Below are positions 2,168-26,027 of a stretch of 32,000 bases of DNA, in pieces; the first letter of the stretch is position 1; the number at the start of each line of letters is the position of its first letter. The position numbers and the translations under genes are program-made. This DNA is from Synechocystis sp. PCC 6803 substr. PCC-P (GTDB lineage: Bacteria; Cyanobacteriota; Cyanobacteriia; Cyanobacteriales; Microcystaceae): NCBI RefSeq assembly GCF_000284455.1, contig NC_017039.1, forward strand, positions 540,001 through 572,000. Reading direction: 5' to 3'. Below the pieces are notes generated by a model. The model did no database searches, had not been told where the DNA came from, and saw nothing but the letters and a program-made list of their open reading frames with translations.

Positions 2168-2206
2168 GGCCATATCGATCATGAATTCAATACACTTGAT
2201 TACTCT

Positions 2207-2698
2207 CTAGGTGTTTTTAGGCTCGTTTTTGATACCTAGTTTTTCCAAATTAATATTTAGGCATTCTGCAATTTGCTCATGACTTAATCCAAAAGTGAGA
2301 AGTTTTTCAATAAGTCTCGTCAAAAACTGATCATTTTGGCAACTTTTGTCTGATCTTTTATCTAAACCTACGTAAAAACTAACTTGGTCTATTGAACCAA
2401 CCGTATTATCGTTTCCAGAAATGCTTACGTTGTTGGCGAATTTGTGACGAAGTAAGCTAGACCTAATATTTGATTTGTTAATCTCTTCTCCAAAAATTTC
2501 TGAGAATAATTTCCACAATTCGTAACCAATGTCCTTAATATATCCTTCTGTACAGTTTAAATCTCTCGCTATATCTGCATATTTTTTTCTTTGTAAAACC
2601 CCTTCAATGACCCCAAACTCAATATCATCCAGGTGTCTACCTGTTTTTTGAAACACCATATCGTCAGCGAAAAGCAAGCACTCCCCTAAATCCATCAT
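2207..2698 (-). CDS. Stand-alone HTH-type putative regulator (N-terminal module resembling that of cyanobacterial STAND / vWA-MoxR-associated proteins, plus a second C-terminal HTH-like segment)
   Basis: 163-aa ORF in an AT-rich islet. It contains the segments KYADIARDLNCTEGYIKDIGYELWKLFSEIFGEEINKSNIRSSL and LSHEQIAECLNINLEKL. The family assignment is from memory only. Confidence 0.55.
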   Translation of the reverse strand: MMDLGECLLFADDMVFQKTGRHLDDIEFGVIEGVLQRKKYADIARDLNCTEGYIKDIGYELWKLFSEIFGEEINKSNIRSSLLRHKFANNVSISGNDNTVGSIDQVSFYVGLDKRSDKSCQNDQFLTRLIEKLLTFGLSHEQIAECLNINLEKLGIKNEPKNT

Positions 2699-2747
2699 AT
2701 CCGTTAATTTAAGTTTGGTTTAGGTTGTCGCACAAAATAGTATACGT

Positions 2748-2841
2748 CTAAATTCGACTTTATTCGACTTTTTCTAAATTTGATGACAATTCAAAATAGT
2801 TAAAGTATACAAACTGACTAAATCCGACCTAGTTCGACTTT
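2748..2841. promoter_or_regulatory. Divergent promoter region with two 24-bp imperfect direct repeats (candidate operators)
   Basis: CTAAATTCGACTTTATTCGACTTT (2748-2771) and CTAAATCCGACCTAGTTCGACTTT (2818-2841) share 20 of 24 positions. The first contains a perfect tandem 10-mer, ATTCGACTTT x2 (2752-2771). They lie between the divergent genes ending at 2698 (start of the minus-strand gene) and starting at 2905. Confidence 0.4.
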
Positions 2842-2904
2842 ACGAACAATTTAGATTTGTAGTAAGGTGACAACGTCAGTAAAAAAACTCTATCGGTTTA
2901 AATT

Positions 2905-3444
2905 ATGTTAAGCTTAGAAAAAGGTCAGTCTCTTTCCCTTACTAAACCAGATGGGTCTAGTATTCAGAAAGTTCGTGTAGGGCTGTCATGGGATGTCGCT
3001 AGCATAGGCTCTAATGTTGACTTAGACCTTTTTGTCGTACATAAAGAATCTAAAAAAGTTGCCTTTTTTAATGACAAAACCGCAATTTCTGGTATCAAGT
3101 TAAGTGATGATAATTTGACTGGCGAGGGAGAAGGAGATGATGAGTTTACAGAACTAGATGCAACAAAGACTGATGATGGAGATTATTATATTTGTGTCAA
3201 TATTTACGACGCAAAATCAAGAAAACAGGCTTTTAACCTTGTAAATAATGCAAAAGCAACAATTTATAATAACGAGACTAACACAGCCCTTGCTAGCTAT
3301 TCTATTACTGAAGACGGAGGTCAAAACACAGGCATTATTGTCGCCAAATTAAAAGATGTAGGCGGTAGCTATGAATTCACTGCACTCGGGGAGTATATTG
3401 TTGGCGACATTAACGAAATTGCCCAGGTAGTTTTTAGAAAATAA
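2905..3444 (+). CDS. TerD-domain stress protein (single-domain, orphan)
   Basis: 179-aa ORF. It opens with LSLEKGQSLSLTK...VRVGLSWDV, then DLDLFVV, then the acidic motif DDNLTGEGEGDDEF typical of TerD Ca-binding sites. Confidence 0.8.
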   Translation: MLSLEKGQSLSLTKPDGSSIQKVRVGLSWDVASIGSNVDLDLFVVHKESKKVAFFNDKTAISGIKLSDDNLTGEGEGDDEFTELDATKTDDGDYYICVNIYDAKSRKQAFNLVNNAKATIYNNETNTALASYSITEDGGQNTGIIVAKLKDVGGSYEFTALGEYIVGDINEIAQVVFRK

Positions 3445-3494
3445 CCTGATAATCGTAGGAAATTCTCCTTGTAATTGTGTTTAGATTTTTTGTG

Positions 3495-3528
3495 GAATGG
3501 GAAGAAATTTTTCTTCCCATTCATTTTT
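3495..3528 (+). terminator. Rho-independent terminator downstream of the TerD gene
   Basis: Perfect 12-bp stem, GAATGGGAAGAA (3495-3506) pairing with TTCTTCCCATTC (3511-3522). The loop is ATTT and the stem is followed by ATTTTT. Confidence 0.7.
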
Positions 3529-3569
3529 CAAATATTTAAGGTCTGTTTCATTGTGAATGATTATGATGC

Positions 3570-4973
3570 CTAATGGCTAAAGTGGGAACCTTCCTGCTTC
3601 GGTTTGTGGTCCGGTTGGCTGGCAAAATAGGCGATCGCCCTTTCCATGTCCGCTAACAAAAGGTCCGCCATATCCCGACTAAAACCCTCTTTCACGACAA
3701 TGCGTTGCACCACCAAATCTTCACGGTTTTTGGGCATGCGATAGGCGGGCACCAACCAGCCCCGTTCCCGCAATTTGTCGGCCATGTCGTACAGGGTATA
3801 ACAAGTGTTGGCCAATACTTCGTCCTTTAATCTCCAGGCAAAAACCGGGATATCCCCACCGTCGGTGAGCAATTCAAAAGGGCCTAATTGGGCAATTTTG
3901 CCAGATAGATACAGAGCCGTATCTCGACAAGTCTGTTGGATTTTGCGGTAACCTTCTTTGCCTAAGCGGAGAAAGTTATAATACTGGGCCACTACCTGAT
4001 TGCCGGGGCGGGAAAAGTTGAGGGCAAAGTTGGGTAAATCTCCCCCCAAATAGTTGCAATGGAAAATTAATTCTTCCGGTAATTCTTCCTTATCCCGCCA
4101 AATGATCCAACCTACCCCCGGATAAACTAAACCGTATTTGTGGCCAGAGGTGTTGATGGATTTCACCCAAGGTAAACGAAAATCCCAACGCAAATCTGGA
4201 TCTAAAAAGGGAGCAATAAAACCACCGCTGGCGGCATCTATGTGCAGAGGCACCTGCCAACCAGTTCTTTGATTTAAAGTTTCCAGGGCATCGTTCAACG
4301 CTTCAATGGGTTCATAACTGCCGTCAAAGGTGCTACCTAAAATACCAATTACACCGATGGTATTTTCGTCAATTAGCTTAACTGCTTCTTCCGGGCTGAT
4401 GTGGTACCGATCGCCTTCCATGGGGACAAAGCGGGGTTCCACTTCCCAGTAACGACAAAACTTTTCCCAACAAACCTGGACGTTAATGCCCATAACCAAA
4501 TTCGGGCGATCGCCTGGTTTCCCTGCCGCTTGTCGTCGTTGCCGCCATTTCCACTTCATGGCCATCCCCCCCAACATGGCCGCTTCACTAGAACCAATGG
4601 TGGAACAGCCGGTGGCTTCCGCACTGGCCGGAGCATTCCAGAGTCGGGACAAAATATTGACGCAACGCAACTCAATTTCCGCCGTTTGGGGATATTCATC
4701 CTTATCGATCATGTTTTTGTCGAAGGTATCCGCCATCAGTTGCCTAGCTTCCGGCTCCATCCAAGTGGTGACAAAGGTGGCCAGGTTTAATCGGGAATTG
4801 CCATCTAGCCCCAGTTCATCGTGGATGAGGTTATAGGCGATCGCCGGTAGCATTTCCGTTTCTGGCATTTCATATTTACTGACAGAATTGGCTAGGCCCC
4901 GGGCCGCATAGGTGGGGGTCAGTAGGCTTTCCGCTTCACTGAGCTGGTTGAGGTCAATTTTTTTATGCACCAT
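3570..4973 (-). CDS. gad: Glutamate decarboxylase (PLP-dependent)
   Basis: 467-aa ORF. It has the GAD-type PLP-lysine motif SINTSGHKYGLVYPGVGW. Overall similarity to bacterial and plant GAD is by recollection. Confidence 0.9.
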   Translation of the reverse strand: MVHKKIDLNQLSEAESLLTPTYAARGLANSVSKYEMPETEMLPAIAYNLIHDELGLDGNSRLNLATFVTTWMEPEARQLMADTFDKNMIDKDEYPQTAEIELRCVNILSRLWNAPASAEATGCSTIGSSEAAMLGGMAMKWKWRQRRQAAGKPGDRPNLVMGINVQVCWEKFCRYWEVEPRFVPMEGDRYHISPEEAVKLIDENTIGVIGILGSTFDGSYEPIEALNDALETLNQRTGWQVPLHIDAASGGFIAPFLDPDLRWDFRLPWVKSINTSGHKYGLVYPGVGWIIWRDKEELPEELIFHCNYLGGDLPNFALNFSRPGNQVVAQYYNFLRLGKEGYRKIQQTCRDTALYLSGKIAQLGPFELLTDGGDIPVFAWRLKDEVLANTCYTLYDMADKLRERGWLVPAYRMPKNREDLVVQRIVVKEGFSRDMADLLLADMERAIAYFASQPDHKPKQEGSHFSH

Positions 4974-5130: not shown

Positions 5131-5355
5131 ATGAATAGCTTACTGTCTCGCATTACCCAAACCCCCGGTCAGTGTGGTGGTCGTCCTTGTATTCGAGGGA
5201 TGAGGATTCGAGTGAGCGACATCCTAGAAATGTTAGCTGAGAATGTTAGCACCTCTGAGATTTTAGAGGACTTTCCAGACCTAGAAATGGCCGATATTCA
5301 GGCTTGTCTAGTGTTTGCTGCACGGCGGACTGATTTTTCCCGGTTGACGGCATGA
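5131..5355 (+). CDS. DUF433-family small protein (antitoxin-like)
   Basis: 74-aa ORF with the DUF433-type core GGRPCIRGMRIRVSDILEML...ILEDFPDL. Its stop overlaps the next start in an ATGA (5352-5355). Confidence 0.75.
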   Translation: MNSLLSRITQTPGQCGGRPCIRGMRIRVSDILEMLAENVSTSEILEDFPDLEMADIQACLVFAARRTDFSRLTA

Positions 5356-5690
5356 ATATTTGGGTTGATGCTCAACTACCTCCAACATTGGCAGATTGGC
5401 TGTCGAGTAATTTTGATTTAGAGGCGTCAGCTTTGAGGGATCTGGGATTACGGGATGCAAGAGACATTGAAATTTTTGATGCCGCACGAGTTGCCAACTC
5501 TGTAATCATGACAAAAGACAGCGACTTCGTTGATCTTGTATGTCGATTAGGAATACCACCTCAAATCATTTGGCTAACTTGCGGTAACGTTACGAATCGA
5601 AACTTACGTCGAATTCTCTCAAGTACTTTGCCACAGGCTCTGGAAAAACTGCAAGCAGGCGAAATTATCATAGAAATCAGCAACTCCTGA
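5352..5690 (+). CDS. DUF5615 / PIN-like (Mut7-C-like) putative toxin
   Basis: 112-aa ORF starting MNIWVDAQLPP, with acidic residues (DARD, KDSDF) as in DUF5615 partners of DUF433. Translationally coupled to the upstream gene. Confidence 0.65.
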   Translation: MNIWVDAQLPPTLADWLSSNFDLEASALRDLGLRDARDIEIFDAARVANSVIMTKDSDFVDLVCRLGIPPQIIWLTCGNVTNRNLRRILSSTLPQALEKLQAGEIIIEISNS

Positions 5691-5692
5691 CA

Positions 5693-6658
5693 TCAGGTTA
5701 ACTCGCTGGCCAAAGACCCATACAGATTTGATTGGCGATCAACTAAGTAATTAGTTTGTTCTGGATGGAGGGAACCATAATCTGCGGAGACACAATCGGC
5801 AATGAGCAAAGTTTCTTCATTACGGGGATAGAGCAAAAGATCACCATGGGGCCCGGCAATGGCACTGTTGCCTAAATATTCCCCCACCAATACCGTTTTC
5901 CCCTGGGCATTGAGCCTGGTTTCAGCGCCAGCCCGATTGCAGTAGGCAACAAAAATATGATTTTCCAAAGCCCGCACGGGAATAACGTTGTGGGACACAT
6001 CAGGGTAGGGAATTTTTGTCCTTTCCCCAGTGGATAACAAGGTCCAAATATCCGCCGCCGTGGGAATAACCACTAATTTTGCCCCCCGCAGGGCTAGGAT
6101 ACGGGTCAATTCGGCAAATTCCGCTTCATAACAGTTCAATAAACCGATGGGAAAACCGTTAACTTTATGGACCGTAAAGGCTTTACCTTCTTCCTTATGG
6201 CGATGGCCGCGGGAGTAAATTTTGCTTTCGTCGGGGCCCCAAAGATGGGTTTTGCGATAGGTTTTGACCAATTTTCCTTGGTCATCAAACAGATTAATGC
6301 TGTCGTAGTAGTGGATTTCCCCGTTAATGGCCGCCTTTTCTGGGTAGGGACAAATGATGGCCATCTGATATTTGTGCGCTAGTTGCCCCACCTGGGTCAT
6401 CACTTCCCCGTCCCTGGCGATCGCCAATTGATGGACTTCTTGGGGAGAAAGGGCATAACCAGTTAGATAAAGTTCGGCAAAGCTAATTAGCTGGGCTTCA
6501 AAACGTTGGGCTCCCTGGAGGGCTTCTTCCATTTTTGCCAAGTAATAGGCGATCGCCTCAGTATTACCAATGGGCCCGCCTTGGTTTTGGTAAATGGCTA
6601 ATCTTACCCCCGTGCCCGGAGCAGGTGGTTGGGGCTGAAGACGGGTTAGATAAATCAT
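5693..6658 (-). CDS. Carbon-nitrogen hydrolase (nitrilase superfamily)
   Basis: 321-aa ORF. The Glu-Lys-Cys triad contexts are present: FAELYLTGY, YRKTHLWG and GLLNCYEAEF. The start ATG (6658-6656) overlaps the ureD stop TGA (6657-6655). Confidence 0.8.
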   Translation of the reverse strand: MIYLTRLQPQPPAPGTGVRLAIYQNQGGPIGNTEAIAYYLAKMEEALQGAQRFEAQLISFAELYLTGYALSPQEVHQLAIARDGEVMTQVGQLAHKYQMAIICPYPEKAAINGEIHYYDSINLFDDQGKLVKTYRKTHLWGPDESKIYSRGHRHKEEGKAFTVHKVNGFPIGLLNCYEAEFAELTRILALRGAKLVVIPTAADIWTLLSTGERTKIPYPDVSHNVIPVRALENHIFVAYCNRAGAETRLNAQGKTVLVGEYLGNSAIAGPHGDLLLYPRNEETLLIADCVSADYGSLHPEQTNYLVDRQSNLYGSLASELT

Positions 6659-15743: not shown

Positions 15744-17048
15744 GTGACTCGTATTCTTAAGCTCTCGCACCTTACCCCCCAACAATTAAACCAACTCAAA
15801 CGTCGCTCGGAACAAAACATTGACCAAGCCCTGGCGATCGCCAAGGAAGTTATTGAGCAGGTAAAAATGGAGGGAGATGCGGGGGTTTTGCATTACAGCC
15901 GTCAGTTTGACTTCGCTGGGGCCACGGCGGAAAATTTGCGGGTGAGTGAAGCGGAATTTGCCGAAGCGGAAAAGTTGGTGGATCCTGAACTACGGCGGGC
16001 GGTGGAACACGCTTTTCGCAATATTGAAAAGGTTCATGCTGGGCAAATGCCTCCCCCCATGCACCTAGCGGAAATTGAGCCGGGGGTATTTGCGGGGGAA
16101 AAAATTACGCCTCTGCCCACGGTGGGTTTGTACGTGCCCAGGGGTAAGGGGGCTTTCCCTTCCATGATGTTGATGTTGGCGGTGCCGGCCCGGGTGGCAG
16201 GGGTAAAGAAAATTGTGGTTTGTACTCCCCCTGACAAAGAGGGAAAAGTGGAGCCGGTTTCCTTGGTCACTGCCCGCATGGCCGGAGTGGATGAGGTCTA
16301 TAAATTGGGTGGTGTCCAGGCCCTTGCGGCAATCGCCTACGGCACCAAAACGGTTAGCAAAGTGGATAAGCTAATTGGCCCCTGCAGCATTTACGGTGCG
16401 GCGGCGAAAAGATTACTGTCCGGCATTGTTGATGTGGGTTTACCGGCAGGACCCAGTGAGTCCATTGTTTTAGCTGATGAAACCACTGACCCCAAGCTGG
16501 CGGCGTTGGATTTGTTGATCGAAGCGGAACACGGCTCCGACTCAGCGGCGCTGTTGGTGACCCACTCTGCAAGTTTGGCGGAAAAGGCATTGGGTTATTT
16601 AGGGGAATACCTGGAAAAACTCCCCCCCTGGCGCAAAAAGTTTTGTGAAGATGGTCTGGGTTCCTATGGCGGCATTTTGCTCACTGATAGTTTGCAAGCT
16701 TCCCTAGATTTCATTAACGATTACGCTCCGGAACATTTGCAGGTGTTGACGGCGGACCCCCTCAAATTGGTGGGCAAAATCGACAATGCGGGGGAAATTT
16801 TGCTGGGCAATTACACTCCGTCTTCAGCCGCTACCTATGCCATTGGGGTAAATGCGGTGCTTCCCACGGGAGGCTTTGCCCGTTCCTACTCGGCGGTGTC
16901 GGTGTTTGATTTCCTCAAGCGTTCTACCCTAGCTTATTTAACGGAGGAAGGTTTTGCTGGGGTGAAGGAAACGGTCACTACCCTAGCGGACTATGAGGAT
17001 TTTCCAGCCCATGCCCTGGCCATACGGGAACGGGAAAATTTGCTTTAA
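15744..17048 (+). CDS. hisD: Histidinol dehydrogenase
   Basis: HisD-length ORF with a conserved core (YVPRGKGAFPSMMLM, IEAEHGSDS, APEHL). I placed the start at the GTG of VTRILKL (15744). The track ORF begins at 15720. Confidence 0.9.
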   Translation: MTRILKLSHLTPQQLNQLKRRSEQNIDQALAIAKEVIEQVKMEGDAGVLHYSRQFDFAGATAENLRVSEAEFAEAEKLVDPELRRAVEHAFRNIEKVHAGQMPPPMHLAEIEPGVFAGEKITPLPTVGLYVPRGKGAFPSMMLMLAVPARVAGVKKIVVCTPPDKEGKVEPVSLVTARMAGVDEVYKLGGVQALAAIAYGTKTVSKVDKLIGPCSIYGAAAKRLLSGIVDVGLPAGPSESIVLADETTDPKLAALDLLIEAEHGSDSAALLVTHSASLAEKALGYLGEYLEKLPPWRKKFCEDGLGSYGGILLTDSLQASLDFINDYAPEHLQVLTADPLKLVGKIDNAGEILLGNYTPSSAATYAIGVNAVLPTGGFARSYSAVSVFDFLKRSTLAYLTEEGFAGVKETVTTLADYEDFPAHALAIRERENLL

Positions 17049-17297
17049 CTTAGAATTGCTGATTGCCGTATTACTTCTGAAATATTCAACAATGCCAGTT
17101 CATTTTTAAAAGATTTAAAATTATTGTTGTTATTCAGGCGATCGCCAAGCTAATCAATAGGATAAATACCGGATAGATAATTTTTGATTATTCTCTCTAC
17201 CGTGTCCATTGATAGGGATTTCGCTTGTTTTTTCATTTACATTCACGTATCCATCGTTATCTAAGAAAGCGTTTGAAAATTACAAGACTAGGTATTT

Positions 17298-17385
17298 ATC
17301 CCCCTAAATCTCCTCACTAAAGCTCCGGCTTAAAAAGGAGAATTTTACGGCAGTTCCCCCCTTCTCAAGGGGGGCTAGGGGGGAT
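17298..17385. repeat. Small palindromic G/C-run intergenic element (MITE-like)
   Basis: ATCCCCCTAAAT (17298-17309) and CTAGGGGGGAT (17375-17385) are near-inverted ends. An internal hairpin has C6 (17356-17361), loop TTCTCAA and G6 (17369-17374). Confidence 0.3.
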
Positions 17386-17524
17386 TAAACAGCCAAAACC
17401 CAACTTTCCAAATATGCTCTAAGCTCATTGAGGAATTTGTCATAAATCAACAACTTAAGATTCAGATTAATACTCCAAAATTTAATTCAATTCTAAATAA
17501 TTTTTCATTAAACAATTAATCCTT

Positions 17525-19081
17525 ATGAATAATTCTACTGTCTCTAGTATTGACATTACTCCCCAAGATAGATACAACCAACAATTACTAGCCCATGTTC
17601 ATCCTCCGGACTGGATTAATCCTTCTCCTAAAGATCAATATGACCTGGTAGTTATTGGAGCTGGCACCGCTGGTTTAGTCGTAGCTGCTGGGGCAGCGGG
17701 TTTAGGTATTGGTCTTAAAGTTGCTTTAATTGAAAAGCATTTGATGGGGGGCGATTGTCTCAACTTTGGTTGCATTCCTTCTAAGGCCCTAATTAGCTCC
17801 GCAAGGGTGGTAGGAGTAATGAATAATGCTAATAGTTTAGGCATCAAAAAACCAGACAGCATTGAAATTGATTTTCCCGCTGTGATGGCGAGAATGCGTC
17901 AAATTAGGACCGGCATTAGCCACCATGACTCTGCTCAAAGATTTCGGGATTTGGGCATTGATGTTTTTCTTGGAGAAGGACATTTTGTTCGTAATAATCA
18001 AATTGAGGTGGGAGGGGCTATTCTTAACTACAAAAAAGCCATAATTGCCACTGGAGCGAAAGCGGTTAAACCTAACATTCCTGGCATAGAAGAAGTCGGA
18101 TTTTTAACTAATGAAACAGTGTTTTCCTTAACGGCATGCCCCGATCGCCTAGGGGTCATTGGAGGTGGCCCGATTGGGTGTGAGTTAGCCCAAGCTTTTC
18201 AACGATTGGGGGCGCAAGTTACGCTCTTTCATCGGGGTAGTCATTTGTTGAACAAAGAAGATCCGGAAGCGGCGGCGATTGTACAGGAATCCTTAATCAA
18301 AGATGGCATTGAACTAATTTTAAACGCCAAATTGGAACGGGCAGAATTAACTGATCGGGGTAAAGTTTTGCATTACAGGGCTAATGGCGATTCTGGCACC
18401 ATTGTAGTGGATGAAATTCTGGTTGGTGCAGGGCGAGCCCCTAATGTGGAGGAATTAAACTTAGAGGCTGTGGGGGTAAAATTTGATCGCCGAGGAGTGA
18501 AAGTCAACGATTATTTGCAAACTACCAGCCCGCAAATTTATGCCGCCGGGGATATTTGTATGGACTGGAAATTCACCCATGCCGCCGATGCCGCCGCCCG
18601 CATTGTGATTAAAAATACTCTCTTTTCTCCCTTCGGTTTAGGACGCAGTAAACTAAGCAGTTTAACCATGCCTTGGGTAACCTACACCGACCCAGAAATT
18701 GCCCATGTAGGATTAAATGAAACTATGGCTGAGGCCTTAGACATAGGCTATAAAATTATTAAAATTCCCTTTTCCCAGGTTGACCGGGCGATCGCCGCTG
18801 ACGAGACAGAGGGATTTTTGAAAATTATCCACGTAGCCAACAGTGATGAAATTTTAGGTGCTACCATTGTTGCCTCCCATGCCGGGGAAATGATTTCTGA
18901 AATTACCACGGCTATTGTTAATAAAATTGGCTTAAGCAAATTAGCCGGGGTGATCCATCCCTATCCCACCCAGGCCGAAGCGATTAAAAAAGCCGCCGAT
19001 ACTTACCGCCGTACTTTGCTCACTAATAATACGAAAAATTTACTAAAACTTCTAACTAAATTTCCCAGTAAATTATTCTAG
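17525..19081 (+). CDS. merA: Class I pyridine-nucleotide disulfide oxidoreductase, mercuric-reductase-like
   Basis: 518-aa ORF. It has the FAD motif VVIGAGTAG and the redox-active site GGDCLNFGCIPSK. I recall this as the Synechocystis MerA-like enzyme (slr1849). There is no C-terminal Cys pair and no N-terminal HMA domain. Confidence 0.7.
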   Translation: MNNSTVSSIDITPQDRYNQQLLAHVHPPDWINPSPKDQYDLVVIGAGTAGLVVAAGAAGLGIGLKVALIEKHLMGGDCLNFGCIPSKALISSARVVGVMNNANSLGIKKPDSIEIDFPAVMARMRQIRTGISHHDSAQRFRDLGIDVFLGEGHFVRNNQIEVGGAILNYKKAIIATGAKAVKPNIPGIEEVGFLTNETVFSLTACPDRLGVIGGGPIGCELAQAFQRLGAQVTLFHRGSHLLNKEDPEAAAIVQESLIKDGIELILNAKLERAELTDRGKVLHYRANGDSGTIVVDEILVGAGRAPNVEELNLEAVGVKFDRRGVKVNDYLQTTSPQIYAAGDICMDWKFTHAADAAARIVIKNTLFSPFGLGRSKLSSLTMPWVTYTDPEIAHVGLNETMAEALDIGYKIIKIPFSQVDRAIAADETEGFLKIIHVANSDEILGATIVASHAGEMISEITTAIVNKIGLSKLAGVIHPYPTQAEAIKKAADTYRRTLLTNNTKNLLKLLTKFPSKLF

Positions 19082-21810: not shown

Positions 21811-22065
21811 TTAACTCTTACCAGTGGCAGGGGAATAATCGGCAATAACGGCAATGTACAACAGGTGCAAAAGCAAACCCCCTAGCCAGATGCCCGAAAG
21901 AGGTGTCAACCAAGACCAATCGGCCTTGTTTAAGTTATGAACAAACCATAGGCCAGAGTTAATCGCTAAAAATACTGCCACATGGACAGCAAAATTCATC
22001 CGGTCATCCAAACGGCGAAAGGCAGGGTCATTACGGTCGGGTTTACGGGGCCAACGAGGAGGCAT
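21811..22065 (-). CDS. 2TM-domain small membrane protein
   Basis: 84-aa ORF. A basic N-terminus is followed by two hydrophobic helices (FAVHVAVFLAINSGLWF, IWLGGLLLHLLYIAVI). Confidence 0.6.
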   Translation of the reverse strand: MPPRWPRKPDRNDPAFRRLDDRMNFAVHVAVFLAINSGLWFVHNLNKADWSWLTPLSGIWLGGLLLHLLYIAVIADYSPATGKS

Positions 22066-22658
22066 AGATTACCAGTCAGGGTCACAATTAATCACTAGCC
22101 CTAATTTTAACGGCAACGGTCTGAAATCCCCGTAGATCAAGACGCAAAATTAAGCAAAATTTCAGCAAAGTTAGCGGACGGGCTCCTGCCTGGAGTGGCC
22201 AAAAAGGTGGCCCAATGTCAGCACTACAGTCGACCCAATGCCCCTATCAGTTTTTTCATCCACTCTGCACCACTCATATCACTGGCACAGGGCTGGCGCT
22301 GACTATTTCCGGCATTGGTTGGACCACTCATCGGAACTACTAAAATCCTACTCCTCCACCATAGGGATTCGCCAAAACCAATTCGTTTCTCCTCTACTTT
22401 CTTTAATTTTTCTTTGGAAATAAGCCCTTACATAGCAATAAATTGTGCTTGATACCTACAGCTATTTTTTCGTAAATTTAATGTACGATTTACTCCCGAG
22501 ACTTTGCAGCAATAAATGTTAAATTTTGTATCGATATTCAACGTTTCTGTATCTAGCCATAAATAAAATTTGAGTTACAATGGGAGAAGAGTGTTTTTAA
22601 AATTAAGTGCAAAAAGTCGGTGTGATTTAAAGCAAAAAAAGTCGCTGTGTAGAAAAGG

Positions 22659-23147
22659 ATGAAAACTATGGATGCCCAGGAAATTCTTCGGTGTTACGCG
22701 CAAGGACAAAGGGATTTTAGTCATATAAACTTGGTCAGAGTCTGTTTGTCCAATGCAAGCCTAATCGGAGCACAACTAATTTTCGTAGACCTCGGTGGTG
22801 CAAACTTAACCCGTGCACAGCTTGACAGTGCAACCTTAAAAAACGCCAATCTTGCTTTAGCTAATATGACGGAGGTGTGTTTGATTTATGCTGATTTGAG
22901 TAATGCAGACCTTAGTGGTGCAAATTTAGTGGGGGCAGATCTAACCAATGCAGATCTATCGGGGGCAAAACTAGGGGGGGCAGACTTACGAAAAGCGAAC
23001 TTGTCTGAAGCTAGTCTTCGGGGAGCAGATTTGCGCGGTGTGAACTTGATCGAAGCCAACCTAACAAATACAGATTTTAGCGAGGCAGACTTAACGGGGG
23101 CTTACATAAGTGATGGCGCAGTGATTAATGTTGTCAATCTCTCCTAA
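22659..23147 (+). CDS. Pentapeptide-repeat protein
   Basis: 162-aa ORF with long runs of A(D/N)LxG-type pentapeptides (ADLSGANLVGADLTNADLSGAKLGGADLRKANL...). Confidence 0.85.
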   Translation: MKTMDAQEILRCYAQGQRDFSHINLVRVCLSNASLIGAQLIFVDLGGANLTRAQLDSATLKNANLALANMTEVCLIYADLSNADLSGANLVGADLTNADLSGAKLGGADLRKANLSEASLRGADLRGVNLIEANLTNTDFSEADLTGAYISDGAVINVVNLS

Positions 23148-23239
23148 GAAATCATTCATACCTTGTAGCTAGGGTAAAAAAGCTTAAGAATTAAATATTC
23201 TTAAGTATGTGTTTTTTTATTATCCAAGAGGATAAAACC

Positions 23240-23392
23240 ATGAAACCGATGATTTGGCACCCAGAAGATAAAGATGAAAAGGTCAACAAGTATCTAGACC
23301 GCATCAACCATGAACCTTGGTTGGGATTTGTTGCTTTTTCCTTAGCATTTTTCATGGCCTTTATTTTAATAATGTTTATGGGGATTTTCTAG
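23240..23392 (+). CDS. Small hypothetical tail-anchored membrane protein (50 aa)
   Basis: The ATG at 23240 is preceded by AGAGGA. A charged N-terminus (HPEDKDEKVNKY) is followed by a single hydrophobic C-terminal helix. No homology recognised. Confidence 0.35.
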   Translation: MKPMIWHPEDKDEKVNKYLDRINHEPWLGFVAFSLAFFMAFILIMFMGIF

Positions 23393-23549
23393 GAAAATGT
23401 TTGAAAAGTTCTAGGTAAGTTTCCGAAGCACGGGATTAACCATAGCCCCATGGATCTTTGTCTCACTGGTGTTAGGTAGATCGTTCGTTGACGACTTCTT
23501 AAAGCGCAACTTAAACGTTGCAAACCTTTTTAAAGGGTCACCGGGGTAA

Positions 23550-26027
23550 CTAATTGAGCAGCCCAGATTGCTCAACCGTTTGCCAGGCGGGCCAAATTTT
23601 TCCCTGCATAAAGAGGGCGATCGCCTGGAGGCCATTAATTTCAGGGTTATCGGGAGCCAGGGCCAAGGCGGGTTTGAGGGCCTGTTCCCCCTGGTATCCT
23701 TGCCAGTCGTAAAGATGAACAAAGGCTAAATAAGCGTGGGCGTAGGGATTTTCGGGATCTAGTTTGACCAAAGATTGCAAAGCGGCGATCGCCTGGGGAG
23801 GATTTTCCTGCAATACCCGGGCCAAAACTTGGGCATAGGTTAAACGGAGAGCATCAACGGGATTTTGGCTGAGGCGATAGGTCCAACTAGCATCCCCCTG
23901 CCGCAGATAGTCGTGGCGAGGATCGTATAAATTAATCCGGTCAACCTGGGCAAAAACTGGATCTAGCCCAGCAATGCCCTGCTGCAAATTTTGCGCTAAA
24001 TGGTACAGTTGGCTGACAAAATCCAATGGTGGAGCAGGCAAAGCTGGAGCATCGGCAGCTAAGGTTAGGGTAATGTCTGGTAAAGGTAAGGGTTGGGCCG
24101 TCATAGTGCTGGGATCTAGCCATTGCCCTTTTAAACGGTAATCCCCCGGAGGTAGATCCGCCTGGGGCGCCATGGCTGTCCTTTCAATTACTTCAACGGC
24201 TTGCCCATTGTCGGTAGGAAGCAATTCACCCAAACCAATGGCATGGTCATGGAGCCAAACTTGCTTAGGATCAGCAACATTTTCCCAAGTGAGCAAAACA
24301 ATCCCTTCACTAAGGCGATCGCCATTGCCCTGCCAATGGTAGGTGATGGGTACGGGTTGACCGGGGGGGGCGCTGGTGGGTAAATCAACTTTGGTCAGTT
24401 GCGGCAATTCAGTATTAATTTGACTGGGTTTGACCTCCACCCTGGGTTGGCGACGGTGCCAGAGGTTCAACTCACTGCCATCGGGCAAAGGCCAGGTTTG
24501 CACAGCGGTAAAATTACCATTCTGGGCAATGGTTTCTCCCAATTCCACTTGTACTGGGTCAGCTAAATAGTTATCTCCAGTTTTTGTCAAGAACCAGTCA
24601 AAATTTTGCTGATCCTGTTGAATAATTTCCCCGTTACGACTCAATTCCCGACCGTAAGCCCGAAAATCCGCCGCCGCCCCATAATAATTCACCGTATTGG
24701 GATTAATAGCTGGGGTGTTGGGAATCACACCCAAATTAATTCTTTGCTCCGGGGTGGTTTCCATGGCAGCGGTAATGACTTCCGTGTTGGGGGCAGGCAA
24801 AACGAAATCGGGACGAAATAACACCGATGGGTTGAGGGCTTGGACAATGCCGTTGCTACCAGGAATGGGAAATAGGTTGCCGAGGGTAATCAAAATGGTG
24901 ATCGCCAACGTACCCCAACGCACCCACAACCAACGACCACACCAACGGGTCAGACCGAAGGCAAGAAAAATAGCCACAATGGGCAAATAGGGCAAAATGT
25001 AGCGGTCATCCTTATTTTGAATGGCGGAGCAGATTAGATAAGTGCCACCGTAGTAATATCCCAGCCACAGCAACCCCGGTTTCGCTTCCCGCCAACTAGG
25101 TATCTGCAATGAAGCAGGAAAACGGTTCAGCAAAGACAAAATCACCCCCACCAAGGGCGGTATTAACCAGACCCAGGACAGGGCATTGGGTAAATCCTGC
25201 CAGTAGTAAGTCCAGGCGGCTAGGGTATTGACGGGAGGGTCCCCCTCCAAAGTGGCGGGGATGGCATTGGAATTTTGGGCGGTGCTGAATAGATAAATCC
25301 AGTTGGTGCGATACCAGGGATACCAAAGGGGAATGCTTGCCAGTAAACCCACTAGCAATTGGGCTAACCGTTGCCATTGCTTTGTCCAAATGCTCCACAG
25401 CCCCAAGCCCACCAAGGGAAAAAACAGATAGAAAATAATACTTTGTTTGGAGAGCAATCCCAGTCCCAACCCAACTCCAGCGGCGATCGCCCAGAGCCAT
25501 TGGGAACGACGACCTTCAGCTTCTTTCCAATAGGTCAGACAGGTAAAGCTCAACAGGGTAAAAGCCAGGAGTGGACTGTCCAACAACACAATCAAACGAC
25601 TATGGATTAAACGGGGAATCAAAACCATGATGGCCACTGCCCACAGACCAATTTCCCGGCTGAAGAGCTTTTTTCCCAAGCCGTACACAGAGAGAATTAA
25701 AATGCCACTCCAGAGCCAATTACTCAGTAAAGCCAGATCACTACCTGGGCCGCCTAGCCCCTGGAAAGGAGCATTGACTATGTAGGTCAAAGGGGGATAT
25801 TTGGGGGACAACATCCAAAAGCTCCGCCACCATTCCCCGCTCAAAAACTCCGGCGATCGTAGGGCTTGCAAATATTCCAGGCCGTAGGATAAGTGGTTAC
25901 TCTGGTCCCAAGCTGGCACCGTTTGATCCATCCCTAGCCACAGGCGATCAAGGCCGTTGCTACCAAGCCACACCATGGCCAACAGCAGGGGCACTCCCCA
26001 GGATTTAGACAAAATTTGCTTAACCAT
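23550..26027 (-). CDS. GT39 / ArnT-like (GT-C fold) membrane glycosyltransferase with a large C-terminal soluble domain ending in TPR-like repeats
   Basis: Large ORF of about 825 aa with many TM helices. It has the N-terminal DRLWLGMDQTVPAWDQSNHL motif typical of carrier-lipid-dependent glycosyltransferases. The C-terminus has a TPR-like segment (YAHAYLAFVHLYDWQGYQGEQALKPALALAPDNPE). I placed the start at the ATG at 26027; the track uses a TTG at 26057. Confidence 0.75.
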   Translation of the reverse strand: MVKQILSKSWGVPLLLAMVWLGSNGLDRLWLGMDQTVPAWDQSNHLSYGLEYLQALRSPEFLSGEWWRSFWMLSPKYPPLTYIVNAPFQGLGGPGSDLALLSNWLWSGILILSVYGLGKKLFSREIGLWAVAIMVLIPRLIHSRLIVLLDSPLLAFTLLSFTCLTYWKEAEGRRSQWLWAIAAGVGLGLGLLSKQSIIFYLFFPLVGLGLWSIWTKQWQRLAQLLVGLLASIPLWYPWYRTNWIYLFSTAQNSNAIPATLEGDPPVNTLAAWTYYWQDLPNALSWVWLIPPLVGVILSLLNRFPASLQIPSWREAKPGLLWLGYYYGGTYLICSAIQNKDDRYILPYLPIVAIFLAFGLTRWCGRWLWVRWGTLAITILITLGNLFPIPGSNGIVQALNPSVLFRPDFVLPAPNTEVITAAMETTPEQRINLGVIPNTPAINPNTVNYYGAAADFRAYGRELSRNGEIIQQDQQNFDWFLTKTGDNYLADPVQVELGETIAQNGNFTAVQTWPLPDGSELNLWHRRQPRVEVKPSQINTELPQLTKVDLPTSAPPGQPVPITYHWQGNGDRLSEGIVLLTWENVADPKQVWLHDHAIGLGELLPTDNGQAVEVIERTAMAPQADLPPGDYRLKGQWLDPSTMTAQPLPLPDITLTLAADAPALPAPPLDFVSQLYHLAQNLQQGIAGLDPVFAQVDRINLYDPRHDYLRQGDASWTYRLSQNPVDALRLTYAQVLARVLQENPPQAIAALQSLVKLDPENPYAHAYLAFVHLYDWQGYQGEQALKPALALAPDNPEINGLQAIALFMQGKIWPAWQTVEQSGLLN

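Follow-up and report, generated by a model that had tools for sequence, protein, structure and literature searches.

The function of TerD proteins has been unclear for decades, partly because they are usually buried in multi-gene ter operons. Within such operons, disruption of terC, terD or terZ affects every resistance phenotype (tellurite, phage and colicin; PMC4823308). The VMAP-M9 domain was described as a variable middle module of the vWA-MoxR-associated proteins (VMAPs) by Kaur, Burroughs, Iyer and Aravind (2020; PMC7159879), who regard the VMAP-M modules as helical regions that probably sense invaders; a full-text literature search for 'VMAP-M9' itself found no paper. Here, we analysed a 32,000-nt stretch of Synechocystis sp. 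PCC 6803 substr. PCC-P (assembly GCF_000284455.1, contig NC_017039.1, positions 540,001 to 572,000 of the forward strand; hereafter the window, in whose numbering positions are given) in which members of both families meet. A short AT-rich islet holds the divergent genes sll1642, encoding a putative helix-turn-helix (HTH) regulator of the VMAP-M9 type, and slr1764, encoding a single-domain TerD. The conserved unit is the regulator together with its putative operator, and TerD is one among several interchangeable cargos. We consider it probable that the islet arrived by horizontal transfer as a small cassette in which an autoregulated HTH_VMAP-M9 regulator and its operator have had a TerD swapped in as cargo.

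Slr1764 resembles the rest of the TerD family in its full-length domain and in all of the calcium ligand positions (DLD; D-N-x-T-G-E-G-x-G-D-D-E), but it is set under a dedicated divergent HTH gene and without ter genes nearby. Sll1642, judged by the annotation of its close homologs, shares the VMAP-M9 domain, but it stands free and has a small second HTH; whereas the 2020 view was one of invader sensing, the sequence data gathered here point to sequence-specific DNA binding at phased GTCGRA repeats ahead of the gene that encodes the domain. Since the window encodes no vWA, MoxR or VMAP-C protein, the locus does not qualify as a VMAP ternary system. With autoregulated regulators of the tetrahelical LuxR/GerE/NarL type and with the KorA repressor of plasmid RK2 it has in common a small HTH protein, a divergent promoter region, repeated sites over candidate promoter elements and a local likeness in fold. 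However, Sll1642 has neither a receiver nor a ligand domain, its similarity to these proteins in sequence and fold is sub-significant and, whereas KorA and LuxR boxes are typically palindromes, the sites at this locus are same-orientation, 10-bp-phased repeats in two clusters. In graspetide clusters, which make putative omega-ester ribosomally synthesised and post-translationally modified peptides (RiPPs), a sister clade of sll1642 stands divergent from a precursor gene and an MvdD-like ATP-grasp gene and has the same operator architecture; the Synechocystis cassette has no precursor or ATP-grasp gene, and TerD occupies the cargo position. The locus would thus work as a classical divergent, autoregulated unit of regulator, operator and cargo, but to our knowledge neither a two-cluster, helically phased direct-repeat operator nor this domain family has been described in such a unit. 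The features of the islet are as follows.

2168..3569, no strand: AT-rich islet, from the methyltransferase stop to the gad stop; lowest GC and top tetranucleotide outlier
2207..2698, minus strand: sll1642, 163 aa, free-standing HTH_VMAP-M9, putative transcription regulator (exact match to sll1642 / P73041)
2429..2698, minus strand: predicted N-terminal five-helix HTH_VMAP-M9 domain, residues 1-90 (AlphaFold2)
2345..2428, minus strand: predicted disordered linker, residues 92-121, predicted local distance difference test (pLDDT) score <50 (AlphaFold2)
2237..2344, minus strand: predicted C-terminal three-helix HTH-like module, residues 119-154 (AlphaFold2, alignment)
2699..2904, no strand: divergent intergenic control region of 206 bp between sll1642 and slr1764
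2739..2744, minus strand: candidate sll1642 -10 box, TATACT, 8 nt downstream of the proximal repeats
2748..2771, minus strand: sll1642-proximal operator-like cluster of two 10-bp-phased repeats (plus strand CTAAATTCGACTTTATTCGACTTT)
2783..2811, plus strand: candidate TerD promoter, ATGACA (2783-2788), 17-nt spacer, TATACA (2806-2811)
2818..2841, minus strand: TerD-proximal operator-like cluster of two 10-bp-phased repeats (plus strand CTAAATCCGACCTAGTTCGACTTT)
2905..3444, plus strand: slr1764, single-domain TerD of the Ca2+-binding type, 179 aa (PF02342; exact match to slr1764)

The intergenic region carries the evidence for an operator. Read in the orientation of sll1642, the direct-repeat unit is AAAGTCGRAT, with the core GTCG[AGT]A (GTCGRA in its narrower form). 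The sll1642-proximal cluster has GTCGAA at -70 and -60 from the sll1642 ATG, while the TerD-proximal cluster lies at -140 and -130 from that ATG and 64-87 nt upstream of the TerD ATG. The cluster starts are 70 bp apart, approximately seven helical turns, so that both would lie on the same face of the DNA. TATAAT boxes are found after the proximal repeats of three related loci (L052, L225 and L226) at the place equivalent to that of the candidate sll1642 -10 box; with a -10-like box about 8 nt past them, the proximal repeats would occupy the -35 and spacer of the sll1642 promoter. Read from the sequence, the candidate TerD promoter would initiate at about position 2818, which is the edge of the TerD-proximal repeats, and a consensus scanner omitted it because its -10 ends in A. 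The TTTGATGACAATT block, which forms part of this candidate promoter, is conserved in L052. Rfam and tRNA scans were negative, arguing against a riboswitch or a tRNA attachment site, and neither sll1642 nor slr1764 is mentioned in the supplements of the PCC 6714/6803 paper.

We scanned 57 loci, the window included, for this motif, taking the 260 nt that precede each HTH gene and comparing them with the DNA elsewhere. The density of GTCG[AGT]A is 12.2/kb upstream of the HTH gene and 0.45/kb per strand elsewhere, a 27-fold enrichment, and 50 of the 57 loci have the motif upstream of their sll1642 homolog. The upstream matches all share one orientation (0 reverse) and are mostly spaced by 10 bp, and many loci display a distal cluster (about -140 to -110) together with a proximal one (about -70 to -45). 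Seven loci depart from this pattern: four (L020, L038, L042 and L043) have no exact motif within 170 nt of the start and the others have only one or two copies. In one of these four, from Symploca sp. SIO2E6 (L020, about 5740-5850), a long tandem array of the heptamer GGTCATT stands in place of the GTCGRA region upstream of the HTH gene.

The motif tracks the HTH gene, not the cargo. It accompanies TerD cargo in the window and in L049/50, L052/53 and L225, graspetide cargo in L001-L037, and cargo of unassigned function in L021 and L057/58, and it is also found upstream of Nostocales STAND genes whose products start with the domain (L044-L048). The sll1642-proximal cluster is conserved in L049, L050, L052 and L053; in L052/L053, where the regulator is 54% identical, the repeats and the promoter-candidate block have been kept while the surrounding intergenic DNA has diverged. 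The prediction was tested on two further architectures, in which the domain is fused to NB-ARC (L227) or to Uma2 (L228), and both proved to have same-orientation AAAGTCGGA-like repeats that end near a TATAAT-like box. The motif is missing from a TerD-TerD tandem that is without an HTH gene. As would be expected of an operator, a repeated motif stands upstream of the gene's own start, and it does so across four types of cargo or architecture.

The cargo itself is exchangeable, and as families HTH_VMAP-M9 and TerD are not general partners. None of 48 genome loci encoding sll1642 homologs has a TerD within 6 kb; in 34 of them a divergent peptide of about 72 aa and an MvdD-like ATP-grasp ligase are found instead, and some of the remaining homologs face genes of unassigned function. 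In a tally of 224 loci, 58 with the HTH gene and 157 with TerD (the TerD loci being from viral, metagenomic and look-up sources), both genes were present at four, and a locus added after this tally (L225) is the fifth. The narrower idea that the pair forms a unit fares better, since it recurs in at least three genomic backgrounds: in Synechocystis relatives with flanks as in the window and a regulator 89% identical to Sll1642 (L049/L050); amid PrmA, SerA and MiaB-like flanks with a regulator 54% and a TerD 79% identical (L052/L053); and in L225, a sequence seen without flanks, with a regulator 62% identical. That idea does not extend to the whole TerD subgroup, however, because the tandem mentioned above encodes a 72%-identical TerD without either the HTH gene or the repeats. 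Among the matches listed in a metagenome scan with the TerD alignment, the TerDs were at most 40% identical and had no HTH gene nearby. A neighbour-joining tree places all TerD-linked regulators in one clade, whose sister group is made up of the graspetide-linked regulators; this implies one exchange of cargo followed by spread of the pair.

The putative graspetide clusters of Microcoleus, Oscillatoria, Phormidium and Symploca (L001 4381-5804, with equivalents in 34 of L001-L048 and also in L054-L056) have features of their own. The precursors are 71-76 aa long and combine a conserved 'LDKKA(N/H)PLMMHLSI' leader with a Ser/Thr/Trp-rich core, which varies, and an acidic DDDQ(Q/K)EDD tail; two stand in tandem in L005 and L024. 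The ligase is encoded downstream and is a 334-aa MvdD-like ATP-grasp protein (PF21068, E=3.7e-8). A full-text literature search combining graspetide and Microcoleus found no paper.

An AlphaFold2 model of Sll1642, built from a 44-sequence alignment, predicts an N-terminal domain with helices at residues 4-19, 25-35, 40-46, 51-69 and 78-90, and with pLDDT 86-99 across residues 1-80. The linker that follows is of variable length and poorly conserved in family alignments. The C-terminal module is modelled at pLDDT of about 70-81 and has conserved residues G137, L138, Q142, I143 and L147, with weak Sigma70_r4 and GerE matches at residues 132-152; the second HTH-like segment that had been noticed in the sequence is thus recovered as a predicted three-helix module. 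A Foldseek search of the PDB ranks DNA-bound HTH regulators highest among its local matches (KorA-operator, GerE, NarL and sigma region 4), with root-mean-square deviations of 2.5-3 Å over about 60 columns and probabilities of at least 0.9, but with E-values that are non-significant at 0.24 or more. Weak Sigma70_r4 and HTH_23 matches in sequence point the same way. When the family profile was searched against PDB sequences, it matched only generic or de novo designed HTH repeats, and these in the C-terminal module.

The identity of the N-terminal domain was established by proxy. PF26355 (HTH_VMAP-M9) is precomputed on all 18 of 18 Sll1642 homologs at E<=1e-5, including a 93%-identical cluster representative and the 89%-identical protein P0003, and on this basis Sll1642 itself would carry the domain; the local Pfam copy, apparently without that model, gave Sll1642 no such match, hence the indirect assignment. 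Profile searches of the two islet proteins gave an unequal outcome: TerD was found outright (E=2e-36), whereas HTH matches in the local Pfam fell short of threshold (Sigma70_r4_2 reached 20.5 bits against a cut-off of 25.7, with GerE and Sigma70_r4 weaker) and PF26355 on the homologs took their place. NCBIfam and PADLOC scans of Sll1642 returned sub-threshold HTH matches at most, or none.

An exhaustive profile search retrieved 1627 representatives of the Sll1642 family. The preliminary description held that this module is normally found at the N-terminus of STAND proteins, and fusion to a STAND protein is indeed seen elsewhere, the domain occurring in an NB-ARC/WD40 STAND protein (L044) as well as in a Uma2-nuclease fusion (P0075), with NB-ARC fusions among the longer family proteins sampled (P0042 and P0050). 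The free-standing form is not the oddity it was taken for, since 54 of the best 150 of these representatives are 145-200 aa long and 44 are of 400 aa or more. The domain also has a viral occurrence. An open reading frame (ORF) of Planktothrix phage PaV-LD (HQ683709.1 84147-84362), annotated as 'hypothetical protein', matches residues 6-77 of Sll1642 at 39% identity, so that the N-terminal domain occurs in a cultured cyanophage too; this match, a partial one, was the only one to the HTH domain in an isolated-phage database.

The recognition of slr1764 as an orphan single-domain TerD with calcium-site motifs withstood closer analysis. PF02342 matches over its full length (E=2e-36; 125.7 bits against a cut-off of 25.3; residues 2-174 to profile positions 3-185 of 187), and the PDB TerD chains 3IBZ (Streptomyces) and 2KXT (Klebsiella) match at E of about 5e-22. 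In Klebsiella TerD the ligands are residues 40, 41, 42, 78, 79 and 89 for Ca1 and residues 29, 82, 84 and 88 for Ca2 (PMC8779313). The DLDL and GEGEGDDE motifs of Slr1764 align with these positions of 2KXT, and in the alignment the two proteins are identical at every Ca1 and Ca2 ligand position (DLD, D-N, G, G, D and E). Within its subfamily, W29, D30, D39, D41, D69, N70, D79 and E80 are invariant. The subfamily is short (169-179 aa), is 30-39% identical to classical TerD/TerZ/TerE proteins, and was met here in cyanobacteria and on phage-like contigs. Existing annotations of slr1764 read 'cAMP binding protein' or 'TerD family', and sll1642 is listed as 'hypothetical' (PMC2823733; PMC4759255). 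The earlier observation that the usual Ter partners are missing also held, in that none of TerA/B/C/Z, vWA, phosphoribosyltransferase or ATP-grasp proteins, and more broadly no terZABCEF or Ter-associated biosynthetic gene, is encoded among the 29 large ORFs of the window. Since these partners were sought there and not found, the locus is not a Ter system, and Slr1764 is best classified from its sequence as a member of the TerD family, most likely a Ca2+-binding stress protein.

The islet is foreign in composition, as had been proposed. At a GC content of 0.345 against 0.478 for the window, it is the strongest compositional outlier of the 32 kb, and the lowest-GC 1400-nt segment starts at 2201 (0.347; mean 0.477, standard deviation (sd) 0.038). 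Relative to 25 other genes, the z-scores for GC and for GC at third codon positions (GC3) are -4.4 and -3.0 for sll1642, and -3.6 and -3.6 for slr1764. Tetranucleotide deviation also peaks at the islet (L1 distance 0.52; mean 0.27, sd 0.05), and the line counts first used to argue for deviant composition were reproduced (G+C of 20/60 at 2701-2760 and 19/60 at 3061-3120, against 39/60 in the flank at 721-780). The pair is AT-rich relative to its flanks not only in the window but in L049 and L052 as well.

The pair also bears signs of mobility. In L052, a cyanobacterial contig (GCA_013565635.1), it lies between 92-nt inverted repeats (418-509 and 1913-2004) that are 92% complementary, and these look like ends of the type found in miniature inverted-repeat transposable elements (MITEs) placed round a two-gene cargo, as in a non-autonomous mobile cassette. 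A further partial direct copy of the inverted-repeat sequence is present in the same contig at 398-418 / 446-466. The recurrence of the pair in other contexts, together with these inverted repeats, fits horizontal acquisition. The 92-nt repeat was not found in the window, where the islet is instead flanked by an imperfect 20-nt repeat (2126-2145 and 3499-3518, of which 13 nt are exact, AATTTTTCTTCCC); one copy falls within the final codons of the methyltransferase coding sequence, and the TerD terminator hairpin is formed by the other. As a target duplication this repeat is too weak to call: it may be the footprint of an insertion or have arisen by chance. Neither a transposase gene nor a tRNA gene was found near the islet, and no relative with an empty site was found, all of the Synechocystis relatives retrieved having the islet at the same place.

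As to the source of the cargo, the closest TerDs outside the cyanobacterial clade are 52-60% identical and are encoded on phage-like contigs and on three IMG/VR viral contigs (L146-L148). In two such loci (L061, 5001-6281, and L063, 5001-6786) TerD adjoins TerC, accompanied by ERF, NinB and vWA genes in the former and by Amidase_2 and DUF2828 genes in the latter. This arrangement points to a phage-borne TerD-TerC mini-module, and on the strength of these sequences an origin of the TerD cargo in the phage pool is plausible. The isolated-phage database contained TerDs of only 26-34% identity. Separately, the TerDs of several phage-like contigs of low GC content (0.31; P0178, P0192, P0197, P0214 and L061/L062) have Trp in place of an invariant Gly (for example LTWEWDWDDE for LTGEGDGDDE), and the translation of the L061 gene is mismatched under table 11; this suggests that UGA is read as Gly (code 25, with hosts of the Gracilibacteria/Absconditabacteria type) and was called as Trp.

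In the mechanism that we propose for the acquired cassette, Sll1642 would bind the phased repeats, its subunits probably lined up on one side of the helix as an oligomer, and once bound it would control both its own promoter and that of TerD. Repression is favoured, with activation as the alternative, because the repeats cover the -35 and spacer of the candidate sll1642 promoter and positions +1 to +24 of the candidate TerD promoter. Some cue would then release TerD, which would act in the cytoplasm as a stress protein that binds Ca2+, possibly alongside the TerC of the host. Of the initial proposal of a minimal acquired module whose HTH protein controls or partners TerD, then, acquisition fits the evidence, as does control through operator-like repeats in the conditional form just given; the role in phage conflict that it also offered finds no support here. 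Wild-type expression of both genes is low (about 15 reads per kilobase per million (RPKM) for sll1642 and about 25 for slr1764), and in a lexA-depleted mutant slr1764 rises 8.3-fold and 5.3-fold with sll1642 mRNA unchanged (PMC4759255). This rise indicates that the promoter of TerD can be induced, whether through Sll1642 or by another route. A LexA box was looked for in the intergenic region, but comparison with published Synechocystis sites was unconvincing, only CTAGTTCG resembling part of AGTAACTAGTTCG; with no full match to a LexA site, we treat the induction in the lexA mutant as possibly indirect.

Several observations weigh against this picture. The de-repression of TerD at a steady level of sll1642 mRNA means that something other than Sll1642 could be in control, and the repeats might serve autoregulation of the HTH gene alone. 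Evidence from Sll1642 itself is limited in that its HTH matches in the local Pfam (Sigma70_r4_2 and HTH_23) are all below the gathering threshold, that its likeness to HTH regulators by Foldseek is non-significant (best E 0.24), and that it has no recognisable sensor domain. The consensus scanner lists no canonical sigma-70 promoter in the intergenic region, the assignments above having been made by eye. Finally, most of the 57 loci are close Microcoleus relatives, so that the raw motif enrichment overstates the number of independent observations, which amount to roughly six to eight lineages or architectures.

Two alternatives we judge, to about the same degree, to be unlikely. The first is that Sll1642 regulates itself alone and that TerD is a co-transferred neighbour under independent regulation, for example within a LexA-dependent network. 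In STAND-fused members of the family there is indeed just one cluster of repeats, ahead of the member's own gene, as pure autoregulation would have it, and the 5-8 fold increase of slr1764 over flat sll1642 mRNA in the lexA mutant is what such independence would look like. However, free-standing members have a second cluster towards the cargo, about 60-80 bp beyond the first, which is shared by the window and L052, and the divergent pairing with a cargo is maintained throughout the free-standing clade.

The second is a minimal conflict or stress system of the Ter type, in which HTH_VMAP-M9 would sense an invader and partner or trigger a TerD effector. The domain is found in conflict proteins of the STAND, Uma2 and VMAP types (PMC7159879), genes of the ter operon including terD contribute to phage and colicin resistance (PMC4823308), the nearest TerD relatives beyond the clade are on phage-like contigs, and the pair is mobile and AT-rich. 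Set against this, PADLOC (PADLOC-DB 2.0) finds no family at E<=1 for either protein, and the window offers no vWA, MoxR, STAND or nuclease partner; these results leave the suggested phage-conflict role without support. Moreover, the same regulator clade would control a RiPP biosynthetic cargo in most genomes, pointing to a generic regulator and away from a defence sensor, and TerD of the same clade occurs without the HTH gene. A dedicated TerD-HTH conflict system is therefore a weak proposal.

It is very improbable that the phased repeats have a structural role or belong to a mobile element (as sites of recombination or transposition, or as intrinsically bent A-tract DNA that travels with the cassette) instead of being a protein operator: the A-rich units are one helical turn apart, as in bent DNA, and the cassette has signs of mobility, but the repeats lie between the genes and not at the cassette ends, the terminal inverted repeats of L052 differ from them in sequence, the GTCGRA core is conserved where the A/T filler is variable, and the motif accompanies chromosomal STAND genes with the domain as well.

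The surroundings of the islet conform to the layout first described, two divergent genes between a methyltransferase gene and gad with a terminator of their own. The remaining features are the following.

965-2167, flank: C-methyltransferase gene (Methyltransf_13/14)
3495..3532, plus strand: TerD intrinsic terminator, 12-bp stem (3495-3522) with a 4-nt loop, followed by ATTTTTCAAA (T-run)
3570-4973, flank: glutamate decarboxylase gene (gad), on the other side of the islet

The stem of the terminator is conserved in L049. A HAD hydrolase gene at 113-865 is a flanking gene of core composition, which the L052 context lacks. Two milder dips in GC (to about 0.41 in 1400-nt windows) occur at about 16650-18600 and 21900-23800, and beneath them lie the 3' end of the histidinol dehydrogenase gene and genes for a pyridine-nucleotide-disulphide oxidoreductase (GC3 0.385) and a pentapeptide-repeat protein (GC3 0.393). 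Between gad and a CN-hydrolase gene, at 5131-5690, are genes for a DUF433 protein (74 aa) and a DUF5615/PIN-like protein (112 aa; GC3 0.345) that overlap stop to start. As gad and the CN-hydrolase gene are merely 34 nt apart in the Synechocystis contig L049, this pair is a strain-specific insertion. A pair of the same type also flanks the Uma2-fused HTH_VMAP-M9 gene in L228.

Until now, VMAP-M9 has been no more than one of the variable helical modules seen in predicted conflict systems. We would give even chances to the wider proposition that HTH_VMAP-M9 is an uncharacterised sequence-specific domain which binds 10-bp-phased AAAGTCGRA repeats and forms, with its operator, a portable cassette for phage-type TerD, graspetide, STAND/NB-ARC and Uma2 cargos, and which in Synechocystis took up a TerD and travelled as a unit of 1.4 kb that has inverted repeats on either side in one other genome. 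If this is true, the 'variable sensor' modules of VMAP and STAND systems would include bona fide operator-binding domains, and the candidate GTCGRA target would offer a handle on the control of STAND/VMAP genes and of cyanobacterial graspetide clusters. The swap of cargo between TerD and a RiPP, together with the inverted repeats of L052, suggests how units of regulator, operator and cargo may move. A lone TerD paired with a single small regulator, in the cyanobacterium whose genetics is best developed, provides for a clean test of the role of TerD, and PCC 6803 would thereby become a tractable two-gene model both for the domain and for an orphan TerD.

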